Assembly (NCBI GenBank): GCA_963847705.1
Contig: CAWKBC010000040.1
Location: 64,001-128,000, forward strand
Reading direction: 5' to 3'
DNA from: an uncultured Pseudomonadota bacterium
Lineage (GTDB): Bacteria > Myxococcota_A > Polyangia > Fen-1088
Length of the DNA: 64,000 nucleotides
Shown: positions 315 through 11,185 of the stretch, piece by piece
How positions within the stretch are numbered: position 1 is the first letter of the stretch
How the letters are laid out: every line of letters begins with the position of its first letter
Program-made: the position numbers and the translations under genes
The notes under the pieces: model-generated
Databases searched by the model: none
Told to the model about the DNA's origin: nothing
The model's input: the letters and a program-made list of their open reading frames with translations, nothing else

Positions 315-587
315 GGCTGCCTCCTGTTTTTTAGTGTACTGAACACTTGGTCAGTCGTCAACGGGCTTTCTCAGAACCTCGTCTGGTCGGGTGCTCGCAC
401 TTTAGCAGACCCGCGGATCGCGACTCCAAATTTAGACACGTTCCGTCGTCGGAGCCGGTGCGCTCGGGCACTTGAGCGGTAGCTCACAGTAGCGGCCCAA
501 CCGCCGCCCAGCTCTGGCACCGGGTGACGAAGGAGGTCACACATTGAGCGTGACCTCTTGTGCCAGGTCGGGTGCATCATCTCGACC

Positions 588-890
588 ATGAAGTGGCTCT
601 GGACATGGGGCGGAACCTCATTCGGATACCGCGTGGACGATGACCTCCGGACGCACGACGGACGTCATGTTGGAAGGTTCCACGGGGATGAGGTCTACGG
701 AACCGATGGCCGGTATCTAGGCGAGCTGAAGAGTGACAATCGACTGATCACATCTCGGTCGAAGAGCGCGCGTCGACAGGGTGCGTTCACTCCGTACGCT
801 CGGAACGCACCATACTCCCGATACGCCAGCTACGCGGGCTACGCGATGTACGCGGGCTACGAAGACTTCCCCTCTCCCGACGAAATCTGA
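588..890 (+). CDS. Small beta-hairpin-repeat protein (resembles '4-fold beta flower' proteins)
   Basis: MKWLWTWGGTSFGYRVDDDLRTHDGRHVGRFHGDEVYGTDGRYLGEL: repeated (D/G)-G-x-x-h-G hairpin motifs; ATG at 588. Confidence 0.65.
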   Translation: MKWLWTWGGTSFGYRVDDDLRTHDGRHVGRFHGDEVYGTDGRYLGELKSDNRLITSRSKSARRQGAFTPYARNAPYSRYASYAGYAMYAGYEDFPSPDEI

Positions 891-1505: not shown

Positions 1506-1559
1506 ATTCAGGTTCTGGTGATCGTAAGATTGTGGGAGTTCGACTCTCCCCGACCGCAC
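1506..1559 (+). repeat. att core: 3' half of tRNA-Leu(CAG), junction between two tandem elements
   Basis: ATTCAGGTTCTGGTGATCGTAAGATTGTGGGAGTTCGACTCTCCCCGACCGCAC: anticodon loop TTCAGGT, long variable arm, T-arm GGGAG-TTCGACT-CTCCC, acceptor 3' strand; no 5' half upstream; 53/54 identical to 11132-11185. Confidence 0.9.
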
Positions 1560-2792
1560 TCAAGAAATTCGCAGGGTTGTAGCTGGTTCGGATTCTGGTG
1601 AGATGGGTGGTTTGGCTCGATCCCCCACCTGATCCCCCACTTGGCTGGCCGGAGCCAGTAGGAGGAGGATCTTAGACGCCGCCGCCAGCTTCTCCCGAGC
1701 GTCTACGTGGGAGTAGTGCTCGGTCATCGCCGCCGTGACGTGGCCGGTGATCGACCTCGTCACGATCTCGCCCGCCACCTGACGAGCCAGGTTGTTGAAC
1801 GTCCGGCGCAGGCCGTGCACGCTCACCCGCTTCGTGATGCCGCAGCCCTTGAGCGCCCGACGGAGCGGGAACCGAAGAGCGTTCGGCCGCAACAACCCAC
1901 CGTCCGGTTCCGGGAACACCCACCCTTCCCCAAGCCCTACCGCCTGCCGAGCCAGAAGACGCACCCGATGCTTCTGAAGCGTGTCCGCCAGCTCACCCAC
2001 CAGCGGCACCGTGCGGCTGGTCCCTGTCTTCGTCGTCGACACCACCCCGTGCCACTGCGCCCGACGGACCCGAATGATCCCGGCATCCGCGTCCAGATCG
2101 GCCCACTTCAGTGCGGTCGCCTCACCGTAGCGCAGACCCGTGAGGGCCAGCGTCGCGGCGAGCGGATGATGGTCCGGCTCCTTTGCGGCGAGCCAGGTCA
2201 GAACGCAACCCAGCTCGGCCCCCGTGAGAAGGTTCGGCTCTTCGTCGGTTGGCCTGCGAACCGGAAGACGGCGAACCCGACGTGACGGGTTCCTCGGCAG
2301 ATCGAATTCCTGCACCGCGTCTTCCAGCACCATCCGCAACATCACCAGCGCCCCGTTCACCGTTGCTCCGGACTTCTTGCGCGCGAGCCGCGCCTGCCAC
2401 CCCCGAACATCCGATTCCATGATTCGATCGACGAAGAAATCGCCGAGATACGGCAACACGTAGGTGTCGAGCACCTCCGCGTACCGGCTACTCGACGACG
2501 CCTTGAGCCCGACTATGCGCGACGCCAACCACGAGGTCGCGTAGTCGCCGAGCCGGGGCACCTGGACGTCCCCACGTGCGTCGTTCCTGATTTGCTTCTG
2601 GAGCTCCGTTCGAAAGGACGCCGCTTCCTGCACGGTCCCCTCGACGACGCGATCCACCTCCTTCATCCGGCCGGTCCTTGGGTCGACGGCGCGGAGCCGG
2701 ATTCGCTTCCGTCCGTCGGACAACGTAGTGATTCCCGGATATCGACTCTTCGACATGTTCAGCATCTCCATCCGGGGCCACAGGAGTGCCAT
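1560..2792 (-). CDS. int: Tyrosine recombinase / integrase
   Basis: Full catalytic set: GLRYGE (R), TKTG (K), HGLRR (HxxR), GH, EHYSH (Y); stop codon directly against the att core; true start may be 2756 (MSKSRYPG). Confidence 0.95.
   Translation of the reverse strand: MALLWPRMEMLNMSKSRYPGITTLSDGRKRIRLRAVDPRTGRMKEVDRVVEGTVQEAASFRTELQKQIRNDARGDVQVPRLGDYATSWLASRIVGLKASSSSRYAEVLDTYVLPYLGDFFVDRIMESDVRGWQARLARKKSGATVNGALVMLRMVLEDAVQEFDLPRNPSRRVRRLPVRRPTDEEPNLLTGAELGCVLTWLAAKEPDHHPLAATLALTGLRYGEATALKWADLDADAGIIRVRRAQWHGVVSTTKTGTSRTVPLVGELADTLQKHRVRLLARQAVGLGEGWVFPEPDGGLLRPNALRFPLRRALKGCGITKRVSVHGLRRTFNNLARQVAGEIVTRSITGHVTAAMTEHYSHVDAREKLAAASKILLLLAPASQVGDQVGDRAKPPISPESEPATTLRIS
1619..1643 (+). repeat. 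Candidate integrase arm-type site (ATCCCCCAC x2), left end
   Basis: GATCCCCCACCTGATCCCCCACTTG inside the int 3' end; near-identical copy at 11016-11038. Confidence 0.7.
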
Positions 2793-2958
2793 GACCCAGG
2801 ATTATAGCGTCGAGATCTTCGCGTCTAAAGAGCCATATCCGGCCGCGACGACCGGCGGGGAGCAGCGCACCCGAGCAGACGAGATTCCGAACCGCCGAGG
2901 CCGAGCGATAGCGTAGGTAGGCGGCCGCCTCGAGTGTGGTGAGGTACGGTGAATTCAC
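2488..2958 (-). CDS. Excisionase-like HTH protein overlapping the int 5' end
   Basis: GTG-NSPYLTTLEAAAYLRYRSASAVRNLVCSGALLPAGRRGRIWLFRREDLDA is a typical Xis/HTH_17 pattern; the frame stays open ~300 nt into int. Confidence 0.75.
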   Translation of the reverse strand: MNSPYLTTLEAAAYLRYRSASAVRNLVCSGALLPAGRRGRIWLFRREDLDAIILGHGTPVAPDGDAEHVEESISGNHYVVRRTEANPAPRRRPKDRPDEGGGSRRRGDRAGSGVLSNGAPEANQERRTWGRPGAPARRLRDLVVGVAHSRAQGVVE

Positions 2959-3099
2959 GTCGCTGCTTCGAGCACTCGGGCGAAGGCCGGTCGGGTTGCG
3001 GCTTGGCGCGCGCGGACGAGCTCGATTCTCTAATTCGGAGCCGGGCCTCAGACGGCCCACTGAGAGCCGCAAGTCTCCTCGAACGCCGGGCTACACAGC

Positions 3100-3255
3100 T
3101 CAGGTGTCGCAGGTGACTTTCGAATAGATCTCTTCTTCCCCAATGAGCCAGTTCGCAGCCTGCTGTCGTTCGCGAGCGATGCTCATCACCTCCCGCCATA
3201 CGGACTCAGGAGCTTGGGAAATAGGTGCTCCTTTACGGCGCCGACGAGGCGGCAT
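3100..3255 (-). CDS. Possible small basic hypothetical protein
   Basis: MPPRRRRKGAPISQAPESVWREVMSIARERQQ; upstream of xis and divergent from the HEPN-like gene; no recognisable motif. Confidence 0.3.
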   Translation of the reverse strand: MPPRRRRKGAPISQAPESVWREVMSIARERQQAANWLIGEEEIYSKVTCDT

Positions 3256-3287
3256 GATTCCGTCGGCACGCCACGCTTCCCGCAGCG

Positions 3288-4031
3288 GTGACGGCACCAC
3301 TCACTTGGCAGGCGAGCGTGAAAGCCGCTGTCGAGAACCTCGTGAGGAGCCGCCCTCTGACTTCTGCCGAACTGGCGAGGGCTCAACCTCTTTACGAGGA
3401 GCTGAAACGCAAGCTTGCCGCGCCCAGCGAATTCGACCAGGCTCTGATCGAAAGCGCTACCGGCCAGTCGTTCGCTGAGTTCCTGGAGGGCGCACGCACG
3501 GCCGTCGGCGACAGCACCTTCAAGGCCTTGGTTTCGCCCCTGATCGACGTCGGTGGCTGGGCGGATCTCATCGTGCCTGGCGTAGACCGCAATTTCTCGC
3601 CAACTGGGTCGACCTTCGAAGAACGCGTTCGTTCCATCGCCGCAGTTCTTCACCGAGCCGCGGAGACCGCATACAAGCCCCTCCTCCAGGTTGCTTTGAA
3701 GCTGACGCCAACGCGCGCGTCACCAGCACCCCGCAGCCAGGTTCCGAGCACCGTGGGAGCCCTGCTCGAACAATGCCGGGATGCCTGGCAGCGAACCGGA
3801 GGGCCCGTCGGCATCCTCTATGATCGGATAGAGATCGTACGAAACTCTGAAGGGCACGTTCAGACGGAGTTCGACTTCACTCAGGCAACGGTCTCATTCG
3901 TCAACCGGCCCGAAGGCAGGCCACCCGAGCTAGTCGGTCCCTGGCAGGAGCAGGAGCTTGGGAACTACGCGCGTGGATTCCTCGATCTGGTGGCGCTGTT
4001 GTCCCTTGTCTATCGACGCTCGTTGAACTGA
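3288..4031 (+). CDS. Hypothetical protein with HEPN-like motifs (candidate RNase)
   Basis: Helical protein with HRAAETAYK (ExxxK) followed by IVRNSEGH (Rx4H). Confidence 0.6.
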   Translation: MTAPLTWQASVKAAVENLVRSRPLTSAELARAQPLYEELKRKLAAPSEFDQALIESATGQSFAEFLEGARTAVGDSTFKALVSPLIDVGGWADLIVPGVDRNFSPTGSTFEERVRSIAAVLHRAAETAYKPLLQVALKLTPTRASPAPRSQVPSTVGALLEQCRDAWQRTGGPVGILYDRIEIVRNSEGHVQTEFDFTQATVSFVNRPEGRPPELVGPWQEQELGNYARGFLDLVALLSLVYRRSLN

Positions 4032-4069
4032 CCGGGGGGGAGCCGGCGAGAAATCGATTCTCGGCGCCG

Positions 4070-4482
4070 ATGAGTGGCCCACTGGTCAGCAAACCGGGAA
4101 CCAGCCCCTCCACTAAGGCCAGTAGCGTCGCCAGCGCATGCCGGCCAGGCGCCCAAGCGCACACCACCGCAAGGAGCCAGCCCCCCCTGGCGGCGCAGAT
4201 CGGCGCGCGTATCAAGGCCCTCCGCGGCGAGAAGAAGTTCACTTTCGACGCGTTCACCGAGGAGCTCGGCATGGGCAGGGGCTATCTGTCCGAACTCGAA
4301 CGCGGGCTGGTCGAGCCGTCGGTCACCGCTCTCGCCCGTGTCGCCGAGGCCCTGGAAGTCACCATGGCGGACTCGGTGTTGGGCGCGTCGACCCGTAAGC
4401 AGCTCTTTGCGGTGACGCGGGACCTCCCGCGAAATGCGTCGACGAACTGCTGTCGCGTGCCCGGCAGCTCGTCGTGACGTAG
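4070..4482 (+). pseudogene. XRE/Cro-C1 HTH regulator, probably frameshifted at the 3' end
   Basis: IGARIKALRGEKKFTFDAFTEELGMGRGYLSELERGLVEPSVTALARVAEALEV; a helical tail (VDELLSRARQL) continues in another frame after ...RDLP. Confidence 0.7.
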
Positions 4483-4494
4483 GTCTCTCGGGCC

Positions 4495-5406
4495 TTACCT
4501 CCGTAACGCTAGCGCGAACACCGGCGTCCGGCTGACCACCTCGAAGTCAAAGCTACGGTAGAGAGCCAGCGCCCGATCGTTCTGCGCCTCGACAGTGAGC
4601 TCTACCTCGTTGGCCTCCCGATCGGCGAGCAGGCGCAACCCCTCGCCAACCAAGAGGGCGCCGAGGCCGCGCCCCCGGTAGCGGGGAAGCCGGCCAACCA
4701 CCTCCAGGTCGCCGCGCGGGCCGTGGGGAGCCACCTGGACGAACCCGGCGATTGCCTCGCCGTCGAGCAGGAGCCGCGAGACCCGGTGTCCGGTCGCGAT
4801 CGCCCGCCGGAATTCGTCGAGCGGCGGCAAACCCAGCGATGCCTGTCCGTAGAACGCTTCGGCGATCGCGGCGTGCGCGTCCGCCGCTCGCCCGTCGTCG
4901 AGCTTCGCCCATCGCCACCCATCGGCGAGCGCAACCGGCGCCGGCGGCGCGGGTGCCCCGGCCCCCCGCCGCATGTGAAACGTGTCGTAGGCGTGGCTCC
5001 ACCCCGCGGCCAACAGCGCCCGCTCAGCGGCCTCGACCTCGACCAGCGCCTCGCGGAGCGCGAGGTGCAGCACTCGCCTTACGCCCGCGCGCGCGAACGC
5101 CGCCGCCGGTGCGACCACCTGCGTGAGCAGCGCCTCGGCCCCGAGCCGGGCCCGCGTCCCGAGGATCTCGAGGTTGGCGGCGTCGGCGGCGTTGCTGGTC
5201 CTGTCGACGACCGTCGCCACAGCCGCCGTCCCCGCCCCGTCGGCCAAGACCACCACGCCCGCCAAATCGCTGGTCAGCTCGCCGAGCAGCCGCCCAAGTA
5301 GCCTCCGGTCGAACGGGCTTACATGCGCGACGCAGAACGCCGCAAGCGCGTCCCTGTCGCTGGGCGAAAATATTGCCCGTCGGAGGTCAGCGTCGAATCG
5401 CACCAC
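4495..5406 (-). CDS. GNAT family N-acetyltransferase
   Basis: Motif A PRYRGRGLG and NDRALALYRSFDF. Confidence 0.85.
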   Translation of the reverse strand: MVRFDADLRRAIFSPSDRDALAAFCVAHVSPFDRRLLGRLLGELTSDLAGVVVLADGAGTAAVATVVDRTSNAADAANLEILGTRARLGAEALLTQVVAPAAAFARAGVRRVLHLALREALVEVEAAERALLAAGWSHAYDTFHMRRGAGAPAPPAPVALADGWRWAKLDDGRAADAHAAIAEAFYGQASLGLPPLDEFRRAIATGHRVSRLLLDGEAIAGFVQVAPHGPRGDLEVVGRLPRYRGRGLGALLVGEGLRLLADREANEVELTVEAQNDRALALYRSFDFEVVSRTPVFALALRR

Positions 5407-5439: not shown

Positions 5440-5542
5440 CCCGCCGGCCCTTGGAGGTGCTACGCCTTCGCCCCGACGCGCGACCTCCCACGAAGTCCGT
5501 CGACGAGTTGCTCTCGCGCCCGACAGCTCGCGGCGAAGTAGG
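5440..5542 (+). pseudogene. Collapsed second copy of the XRE gene 3' end
   Basis: 5475-5542 aligns with 4414-4483 at roughly 80% identity by eye (GACGCG.GACCTCCC.CGAA.T.CGTCGACGA..TGCT.TCGC...CAGCTCG....GA.GTAGG). Confidence 0.6.
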
Positions 5543-5615: not shown

Positions 5616-6770
5616 ATGGCGAATGAGACCGTCGCATGGGCGCCGGGGAGCAGCGATCCCAAGATCGCGTTCGCCGAATTTCAGCTCCACCTGCGCGAGA
5701 TCACGCCACGCCTCCGCGTGGTGCCGGTGCTGGTCACGCTCAACGTCTTGGTGTTCGGGATCATGGTCGCCGCTGGGGCCAACGTCCTCAGTCCGACGAC
5801 CGAGCAAGTGCTTCGCTGGGGGGCCGATTATGGGCCGGTCACGTTGGGGGGACAGCCCTGGCGCGTCCTGACGAACGTCTTCGTCCACTTCGGGGTCGTC
5901 CATCTGTTGGCGAACATGGTTGCGCTTCTGAGCGCGGGGCCCATCGTCGAGCGGTTGTTCGGGCCGCTGGCGTTCGCGGCGATCTACTTCGCGGCGGGGA
6001 TCGCCGGCAGTCTCCTCAGCGTCGGTGCGCACCCGGTGGTGGTTTCGGCCGGCGCCTCGGGGGCGATCTTCGGCGTTTACGGTGCGCTGGGGGTGTTCGC
6101 GCTGCGCCAGCGAGGCACGATCCCGCGCGTCGTCTTCTCTAAGCTGGGTAGCGTGGCAGGCACCTTTATCGCTTACAACATCATGTACGGCGCGGCGCAC
6201 GCCGCGATCGACAATGCCGCGCATCTCGGTGGCCTGCTGGGCGGTGCGGCGGCCGGTGCGTTCCTTATTCGTCCGCTGGTGCCGGCGCGGCCGAGCGCCC
6301 CGCGCCTGCCCGCGCTGGTCGCCGCCGCGGCGTGCATTTTGGCGGCCGGGGTGACATTCGCGCTGCCAAAGCCCGTGGCGTTCGAGACGATCCTCAAGAC
6401 CTACCAGAATGGCGAGGACACCATCCTCGCCCAATACAACGACATGGTTCGCCGGCTGAGCGCCGGAAAGATCGGCATGCGCGAGGTCGCCCACGAGATC
6501 GATCACACGACCGTCCCTGCCTGGCAGACGCTCGGCGCCGCGGTCAAGCGACAACGCCAGGACTGGGAAAGGAGGCGGAAGCCCACGCCGGCGCAGGGCC
6601 GCCTGCTCGATCTCCTGGAACAGTTGGTCGCGACGCGGGAGGACGGTTGGACGCGAATGTCCGCGGCACTCGGCGTCCAAGACGCCGACGCTTTCGAGCA
6701 GACCTCCGCCGACACCGAAGTAGCCGTCCGCGAGATCCTGAAACAAGTGGAGGATCTGAAATCGCAGTAA
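5616..6770 (+). CDS. Rhomboid intramembrane serine protease with a soluble C-terminal extension
   Basis: PWR, FVHFGVVHLLANM, GASG (catalytic Ser), AAHLGG (catalytic His). Confidence 0.92.
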   Translation: MANETVAWAPGSSDPKIAFAEFQLHLREITPRLRVVPVLVTLNVLVFGIMVAAGANVLSPTTEQVLRWGADYGPVTLGGQPWRVLTNVFVHFGVVHLLANMVALLSAGPIVERLFGPLAFAAIYFAAGIAGSLLSVGAHPVVVSAGASGAIFGVYGALGVFALRQRGTIPRVVFSKLGSVAGTFIAYNIMYGAAHAAIDNAAHLGGLLGGAAAGAFLIRPLVPARPSAPRLPALVAAAACILAAGVTFALPKPVAFETILKTYQNGEDTILAQYNDMVRRLSAGKIGMREVAHEIDHTTVPAWQTLGAAVKRQRQDWERRRKPTPAQGRLLDLLEQLVATREDGWTRMSAALGVQDADAFEQTSADTEVAVREILKQVEDLKSQ

Positions 6771-7016
6771 GGGACGTCGCTCCGGCCCCCGAGCCGCCGA
6801 TCGACGGCGCCGCCCCAGAGGGCTTGCTCGTCGTTCGAGCGGCGCGCCTGGACAACGGACGGACCTGGCCACGCCTCCAGCCGCCGGACAGGGTATAGAC
6901 GTTGACGCGGAGGGGGTGGCCCGGAAACCCGTGGCGTGAAGCCCAATCATGTCACCACGTTGGACTAGGGGTGCGCAACCACCTCTAAGAAGATGATTCT
7001 CATAAGCAGTTGCATA

Positions 7017-7283
7017 CTACTGCTCTGGTCGCCGCCTTTCGCCGCCAGGCACCAAGCCATAGCTAAAGACCGGCTCTCGCCGGTCAAGGTGCTCACCCCC
7101 CTGACGAGCCTCGAGCCGGCGACCGACGACGAAGGTCGACGGCGGCGCCATCGCCAGGAAGCGGGAGAGGCGTCGCGGGTACACCGCCAGCGGGGAACCG
7201 TAGCTCCAGAGCAAATCGGCGAACCACTCGCCGCCGATCTGGAAGAAAGGCACCCGATTGGCCACCACCTTCCTGCCGCTCAC
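7017..7283 (-). CDS. Small hypothetical protein coupled to the nuclease remnant
   Basis: GTG at 7283 overlaps the nuclease TGA (GTGA); VSGRKVVANRVPFFQIGGEWFADLLWSYG. Confidence 0.4.
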   Translation of the reverse strand: MSGRKVVANRVPFFQIGGEWFADLLWSYGSPLAVYPRRLSRFLAMAPPSTFVVGRRLEARQGGEHLDRREPVFSYGLVPGGERRRPEQ

Positions 7284-7530
7284 GACTCTCTCCCGCACGG
7301 TCCGGCATACGGGCACGATCGGCACTGGAACCCGCGGACCGGGAAGAAGATGCCCGCGTCGACGGCCCGCAGAACACCGATGACGGTCTGCAGCGCCTCG
7401 ATCTCATCCTCAGGTCATCGAGGTAGACCGCTGGCACCCTGGTCTTCGTGAGCACCTGCCATGGGCACCGGAGGTAGGTCTTCACCTGGCTGACGCTGAC
7501 ATGGAGGCCGTCAGCGTCGTGGACCCCGGG
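7280..7530 (-). pseudogene. Internally deleted Cas4/AddB-like PD-(D/E)XK Fe-S nuclease
   Basis: N-terminal LHVSVSQVKTYLRCPWQ joined directly to QVLTKTRVPAVYLDDL, then after a frameshift EDEIEALQTVIGVLRAVDAGIFFPVRGFQCRSCPYAGPC*; 1+3 Cys layout kept, nuclease core absent. Confidence 0.75.
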
Positions 7531-11131: not shown

Positions 11132-11185
11132 ATTCAGGTTCTGGTGATCGTAAGATTGTGGGAGTTCGACTCTCCCCGCCCGCAC
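11132..11185 (+). repeat. attR core: 3' half of tRNA-Leu(CAG)
   Basis: ATTCAGGTTCTGGTGATCGTAAGATTGTGGGAGTTCGACTCTCCCCGCCCGCAC; no 5' half upstream. Confidence 0.9.

Follow-up and report, generated by a model that had tools for sequence, protein, structure and literature searches.

HEPN domains that carry an Rx4-6H motif are metal-independent RNases whose motif ends a helix and in which an acidic residue lies one long helix upstream, and in one of them, Csx1, a beta-hairpin follows right after the motif (accessible part of PMC3710099). Such RNases typically act as dimers (accessible part of PMC13043305). The accessible text of the same source describes HepS, a solo HEPN protein of the Gifsy-1 prophage, which forms a tetramer, is activated by the phage tail-tip protein J and cuts tRNA anticodons, and which sets a precedent for a solo HEPN that works without an antitoxin (PMC13043305). 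Stand-alone HEPN RNases are also mentioned as back-up effectors in the accessible part of PMC12839542, where the family considered here does not appear.

Here we compare with these systems an open reading frame (ORF) in a 64,000-nucleotide stretch of bacterial DNA, the whole of which we call the window. We consider it fairly probable that the ORF, broken at its 5' end and likely non-functional, belongs to an unnamed family of proteins about 290 residues long, which are predicted stand-alone HEPN RNases and likely single-gene abortive-infection defences.

The open reading frame and its island

The remaining open frame of the gene lies at 3288..4031 (+) and encodes 247 residues, 199 of them identical to those of the relative P0003, with about 40 N-terminal residues missing. 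A preliminary description of the locus had read this frame correctly, together with the two strings HRAAETAYK and IVRNSEGH and their spacing of about 60 residues (E126 to R185, 59 residues). Within these strings lie an ExxY[KR] motif (E126–K130; 3663..3677, +), on the predicted HEPN helix 2, and an RNxxxH motif (R185–H190; 3840..3857, +), which ends helix 3 and is predicted to be the RNase site, the helix boundaries being taken from models. The pattern R[NDH]xxxH turned up in 1.1% of 10,000 shuffles of the ORF protein, and its occurrence exceeds chance; the looser Rx4-6H turned up in 38% of as many shuffles and so would carry little weight by itself. Searches with the 247-aa ORF gave no match in Pfam, PADLOC or the PDB sequences.

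The frame sits on a 9.6-kb island, the left boundary of which is a 54-nt copy of the 3' end of tRNA-Leu(CAG) (1506..1559, +) and the right boundary a repeat identical to it at 53/54 nt (11132..11185, +). The complete tRNA gene is found 32 kb upstream on this contig (G000:C40:32174-32258), so that islands are stacked at this tRNA: at least two stand behind it, one of ~33 kb and then the 9.6-kb one. In its last 20 kb the upstream island carries relaxase-LPD7, AbiEi antitoxin-like and Fic genes, along with an 806-aa metallophosphoesterase-led protein. A 110-aa protein encoded at 558-890 (+) resembles '4-fold beta flower' weakly, at a score under the cut-off (PF21784, E 2.5e-4), and a short 9-nt repeat run lies near the end of its gene.

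Adjacency to xis and int genes had also been reported, and indeed a gene with an HTH_17 excisionase-like domain (2800..2946, −; PF12728, E 9e-9) and an intact tyrosine integrase with a 410-aa open frame (1560..2792, −; PF00589, E 1e-17) adjoin the ORF. Directly downstream is an XRE-type HTH gene (4070..4477, +; PF13560/PF01381), the tail of which looks frameshifted by eye; the proposal that the ORF is a toxin paired with this gene finds no support. A 53-nt duplication of the XRE tail (4405-4457 and 5466-5518, 79% identical) flanks a GNAT gene, which suggests that the latter was inserted between duplicated remnants. Further along, the stretch at 6150-7500, which covers the tail of a rhomboid ORF, has eight matches of 65–74% identity on six other contigs of the genome. 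It also contains a broken gene (~6940-7520, −), which resembles the remnant of a PD-(D/E)xK nuclease.

Predicted fold

AlphaFold2 modelled P0003 at a pLDDT of 92 and the last 145 residues of the ORF at 95. The models are mainly helical, as the preliminary description had expected of the protein, and the RNxxxH motif stands at the end of a helix, followed by three short strands and then the last helix. The glutamate of ExxY[KR] lies one long helix upstream of RNxxxH, inside helix 139-168 of the P0003 model.

When the P0003 model was compared with 48,161 chains by VIA-align, the ten best rows were all HEPN-bearing (Z 8.8–6.8): 7ae2 came first (Z 8.8, rmsd 3.9, 129 aligned), followed by 8xdj (8.4), 1wwp (8.2), 5yep (8.2) and 1ylm (8.1), and then by Csm6, 2hsb, Roquin, 4nqf and 1jog. 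Two of these rows, 5yep and Roquin (4txa), we presume to carry HEPN domains. The HEPN status of the other eight comes from the entry title or from PMC3710099. The first clearly unrelated row appeared at Z 5.9, and the four best rows for the C-terminal model were likewise HEPN-bearing. In contrast to these top ranks, Foldseek at E ≤ 0.001 returned no match in the PDB, with either the full or the C-terminal model, or in BFVD; its weak rows included the HEPN domain of sacsin. For helical bundles, Z values of about 8 are only moderate, and the case for HEPN rests on the consistency of the rows together with the motifs.

The predicted HEPN domain spans ORF residues ~77-247 (3516..4028, +), with a three-strand insertion after the motif (VIA-align, P0003 106-276 against 7ae2 3-140). 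The remainder of the helical N-terminal domain, ~76 residues here (3288..3515, +) and ~115 aa in full-length relatives, has no clear structural match and was barely covered by the fold search. The unrecognised N-terminal part of ~110 aa that had been proposed is thus too long: only these ~76 residues lie outside the HEPN match, and the rest forms HEPN helix 1. The sequence and fold features of the superfamily are found, namely an Rx4-6H motif with a polar residue after the arginine, an upstream Ex3[KR], and a four-helix up-down fold, predicted at moderate Z, in which the motif ends helix 3. The original HEPN call is therefore upheld by motif conservation (see below) and predicted fold alike, and we predict that in this protein a helical N-terminal domain is followed by a C-terminal HEPN fold.

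Comparison with HepT, HepS and named HEPN families

Structurally the best matches are the HepT chains 7ae2, 8xdj and 5yep (Z 8.8, 8.4 and 8.2; rmsd 3.7–3.9; 125–129 aligned), which share the type of catalytic motif. The HepT chains, however, are only 130–141 aa long, whereas this family has a ~115-aa N-terminal domain and the strand insertion after the motif; identity between the two is only 6–11%, and no MNT gene is adjacent among the scanned neighbours of the family. In a PDB sequence search at E ≤ 10, none of the 23 matches was a HEPN chain.

Like the family, HepS is encoded by one gene of a mobile element, carries an Rx4H motif and lacks a fixed partner gene (as far as the accessible part of PMC13043305 describes it), and its structure 9oik aligns with the P0003 model at Z 5.5 (rmsd 5.4, 133 aligned; VIA-align). 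Size and architecture differ, and for this reason we do not assign the family to HepS: the HepS motif is R100-H105, whereas this family has its motif at about residue 225, preceded by a separate helical domain, and the HepS homologue set consists of proteins of at most 250 aa without extra domains, whereas most relatives here are 270–330 aa long and have the N-terminal domain (HepS values from the same accessible text). In the 12 searched HepS supplements, none of four typical motif strings of the family occurred.

With the HEPN families named in the accessible part of PMC3710099 the family shares an Rx4H motif with asparagine after the arginine, an Ex3[KR] upstream of it and a core of four helices; it differs in that no Pfam model reaches its cut-off.

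Family distribution and conservation

The protein had been called an orphan, but a full HMMER search at E ≤ 0.001 places it among 66 clusters (50% identity), a number that includes the 247-aa ORF itself and its near copy P0004, which is chimeric since its tail matches the opposite strand of the ORF gene. A word-indexed search gave two relatives of the ORF at 73–80% identity. By length the clusters fall into 51 of 270–341 aa, two of 431–442 aa and 13 below 240 aa; relatives are mostly 270–330 aa, typically ~290, and the long forms reach 431–457 aa.

Conservation was read from an alignment (A1) of 54 proteins, comprising P0003, the ORF and 52 full-length representatives and leaving out short fragments and two long forms. 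In P0003 numbering, R214 and H219 are invariant (54/54) and N215 is present in 52 of the 54; upstream, E155 and Y158 each occur in 53/54 and K/R159 in 48/54. The arginine and histidine of the string RNSEGH are thus kept throughout, and the pattern R[NDH]xxxH occurs in 65 of the 66 cluster representatives, the sole miss being the chimeric P0004. The H and R that open HRAAETAYK, considered as further conserved residues, were rejected, as both vary freely in the alignment.

In Pfam, NCBIfam and PADLOC, no family was matched by more than one of the 54 members and none names the family; the single-member Pfam matches, each below cut-off, included HEPN pEK499_p136 (E 0.012), RiboL-PSP-HEPN (E 0.078) and Ribonuc_2-5A (E 0.006). 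For two full-length members, the clusters given by the ESM Atlas at ≥0.9 were all unnamed (one comprises 1,202 members), and recognition scores below threshold make them leads only. Nor did the literature searched, which lay mostly outside subscription papers, hold a description recognisable as this HEPN family, which is thus without a name both there and in the three model libraries.

Members come mostly from environmental bacteria. At family level one of 88 genomes carries a relative; with the best five candidates per genome scored, at least six of 400 genomes at class level do so, and none was found among the best five per genome in 400 genomes at phylum level. Pattern scans of metagenome, genome and viral contigs yielded no real relatives, and two loci picked up on the way (L008, L009) were discarded as chance matches that the family profile did not match. 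Searches by tblastn found nothing in plasmids with P0003, P0061, P0012 and the DUF4272 tail described below, and nothing in phages with P0003 and P0024. The family is rare and patchy.

The 5' end of the gene

The ORF had been portrayed as intact amid decayed element genes. We found instead that similarity to the closest relative extends beyond the called start as far upstream as 3234, where it breaks off abruptly, and that it crosses an in-frame TGA (3255-3257). These 18 orphaned codons (3234..3287, +) match P0003 and P0004 at 12/18 positions, with the TGA reported inside the match; further upstream, identity to the closest relative falls to 1/22, so that 22 codons and the start are missing. 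In 52 of the 54 aligned proteins at least 24 residues precede a conserved proline (median 45.5), compared with three in the ORF and in P0028, a 273-aa protein annotated with the same short start.

On the other side of the joint, which we place at 3232..3233, lies the 3' remnant of a DUF4272 (PF14094) gene, comprising its last ~44 codons (3100..3234, −). Matches to it were found in four of six candidates, three of them with PF14094, and the 43 codons at 3103-3231 (−) are 77–86% identical to the C-terminal end of DUF4272 proteins, which are 236–237 aa when full-length; a distant DUF4272 member gave no significant match to the small ORF, whereas closer members gave a clear one. Similarity stops at 3234, so both homologies end at the joint, and a contig from sequencing run X1 matches 3030-3232 with one difference before diverging from the window, its letters beyond 3232, read by eye, continuing the DUF4272 frame. 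No paper in the searched literature mentions DUF4272; the remnant here sits on an integrative island beside a defence candidate.

The DUF4272 remnant makes up most of the small divergent ORF that had been put forward as a possible partner. This ORF is a chimera of the DUF4272 tail and 23 antisense codons of the HEPN gene, which refutes the pairing; being a gene tail cut at the joint, it is unlikely to be an antitoxin and can be dropped as a candidate for one. The simplest reading of the sequence is that a deletion joined two genes head-to-head, removing the 5' ends of both and anything that stood between them. With start, first 22 codons and upstream region apparently deleted, and a nonsense codon besides, the view of the ORF as an intact survivor is unsupported; it is likely a non-functional pseudogene copy, and the practical point of the locus becomes the opposite of that first drawn from it.

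Could the shortened gene still be used? An unlikely alternative accepts the family as described but has this copy expressed from a GTG at 3288 or 3318, giving a shortened protein with some activity. The HEPN part is complete, with 144/170 residues identical to P0003, and an RNA library from another sample contains a 220-nt contig, possibly from a transcript, that agrees with 3724-3943 except for one difference. No stop or frameshift interrupts the 247 codons that follow the restart, and the sole nonsense codon lies upstream of the restart, where only ~5% of the sites one step from a stop are found; this pattern favours continued use of the short frame, and P0028 starts at the same position. 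Identity to P0003 does not differ significantly between the codons upstream (12/18) and downstream (199/247) of the restart (p 0.22). Against these points, the native start and the upstream region are gone, and the alignment columns of P0003 residues 1-29, which make up three helices in the model, are filled in 93% of the aligned proteins. No sigma-70-like promoter was found on the + strand at 2700-4600, and no Shine-Dalgarno-like match before 3288, with a 3-base one before 3318, both being weak tests in a GC-rich genome. We thus retain the reading of a likely non-functional copy.

Genomic context of the relatives

Of the six relatives with DNA context, five have known or candidate defence genes, or regulators of these, at a distance of at most ~5 kb, a raw count without background control over six loci, of which two are in one genus and three are long forms. 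In that genus (G581 and G624), long forms are divergent from an HTH-IrrE regulator and the DISARM gene drmA, with drmB shown for G581. An intact short form (G695) immediately follows a WYL gene and precedes the PADLOC candidates PDC-M30/M41, with an integrase close by, and a long form with a variant motif, Rx5H by eye, follows an AlbA_2 gene near PDC-M30/M41 (G672). Another copy (G010), which stops before the motif, is beside a cluster of multi-ubiquitin, E2, JAB-ThiF and DUF6527 genes with HTH and IrrE genes. In the last (G625), similarity is lost before the motif near a contig end, and an integrase-like ORF, recognised by eye, adjoins.

The operon at the G010 locus (L012:1567-5018) looks complete, with multi-ubiquitin, Prok-E2_E, JAB-ThiF and DUF6527 genes divergent from the HTH and IrrE peptidase pair. 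The long forms (L018:9551-10885, L019:9584-10942 and L021:1441-2811; 442–457 aa) have ~160 extra N-terminal residues, an extension without a Pfam match in the two long forms scanned.

The neighbourhoods support a link to defence as far as that count goes, and the defence role proposed for the ORF is likely at the level of the family, whereas the copy in the window is likely dead. Absence of an adjacent MNT gene, also noted before, is correct in that none was found in the window, but it says little about this copy, because its upstream DNA was deleted.

That deletion, which took whatever stood upstream, leaves room for a second alternative, which we judge quite unlikely: that the ORF is the toxin of a toxin–antitoxin pair, either HepT/MntA-like or with a small protein antitoxin, the partner having been lost in the deletion and the toxin then inactivated. 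Its closest folds, 7ae2 and 8xdj, are type VII toxins, four loci contain unannotated neighbours, and three of the seven class-level copies look broken (the window, G010 and G625, the latter two close to contig ends), as would be expected of costly genes. However, no MNT family was matched among the eight neighbours of G010 or the 22 proteins scanned for G581, G695 and G672, the gene upstream in the sole intact short-form locus (G695) encodes a WYL regulator, and neighbours vary between loci. Because no MNT was found, we do not assign the family to the type VII toxins, and we keep to the single-gene interpretation.

Assembly and sequencing runs

The source is a GC-rich, metagenome-type assembly (48 contigs, 85% complete, 6% contamination), and it is conceivable, but very unlikely in our estimation, that joint and TGA are assembly artefacts and that the organism carries an intact gene. 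Each of 17 sequencing runs covered only small shares of the stretch, and in the eight compared in detail no outside read or contig bridges the joint or contains the TGA; at 3026, one base is missing from the contigs of two runs. A contig covering 3249-3399 has one difference near an end that could not be placed. Set against this, long matches to housekeeping genes (the gyrA family twice, and alaS) are free of internal stops, the missing 5' parts of both the HEPN and the DUF4272 gene were not found elsewhere in the assembly, and two separate lesions would both have to be errors. Two further genes looked for in the assembly, rpoB and rpoC, were not found. In run X2, a low-depth contig skips 51 nt in frame at 3599-3649 of the HEPN gene and is possibly another decaying copy.

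Possible mode of action

Given a likely non-functional copy of a family of predicted stand-alone HEPN RNases, the family itself is a reasonable new defence candidate, and by analogy it probably works like HepS. In intact members two HEPN domains would pair to form the RNase site, and the enzyme would be held off at rest without an antitoxin. It would then be switched on by a trigger from the phage, which the variable N-terminal domain may sense, and the activated enzyme may cut host RNA, perhaps tRNA, so that the infected cell stops. That the N-terminal domain is a sensor is a guess, made because this domain varies and because the long forms add ~160 residues to it. At the locus studied here, a deletion would have fused the DUF4272 tail head-to-head to the body of the HEPN gene, with loss of the upstream DNA of both.

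It is highly improbable that the family combines a HEPN-like fold with a function outside defence, for example in the processing of RNA or in regulation inside mobile islands: HEPN domains do have non-defence roles (accessible part of PMC3710099), the structural scores are moderate and the neighbourhood count has no control, but a family that is rare and patchy (at least 6/400 class and 0/400 phylum genomes, among the best five candidates each), carried on mobile islands and often broken is unlike a housekeeping enzyme.

More speculatively, and with less confidence than we attach to the reading above, the family may form a hitherto undescribed class of anti-phage HEPN RNases that act as single genes, and its new helical N-terminal domain, longer by about 160 residues in some members, would both restrain the enzyme and sense the phage trigger. 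Carried on integrative islands, such a class would back up DISARM, ubiquitin-like and other systems, at a cost high enough that its copies, like the one here, are often broken.

Solo HEPN defences have to remain inactive with no antitoxin to restrain them, and infection sensing is understood for very few of them, HepS being one example. The family adds a testable new case: its predicted catalytic residues are invariant, the model is a confident one, the N-terminal domain is separate, and both short and long forms exist. It is worth testing although the copy in the window is likely non-functional; since this copy is damaged, a full-length natural relative is the one to study experimentally.
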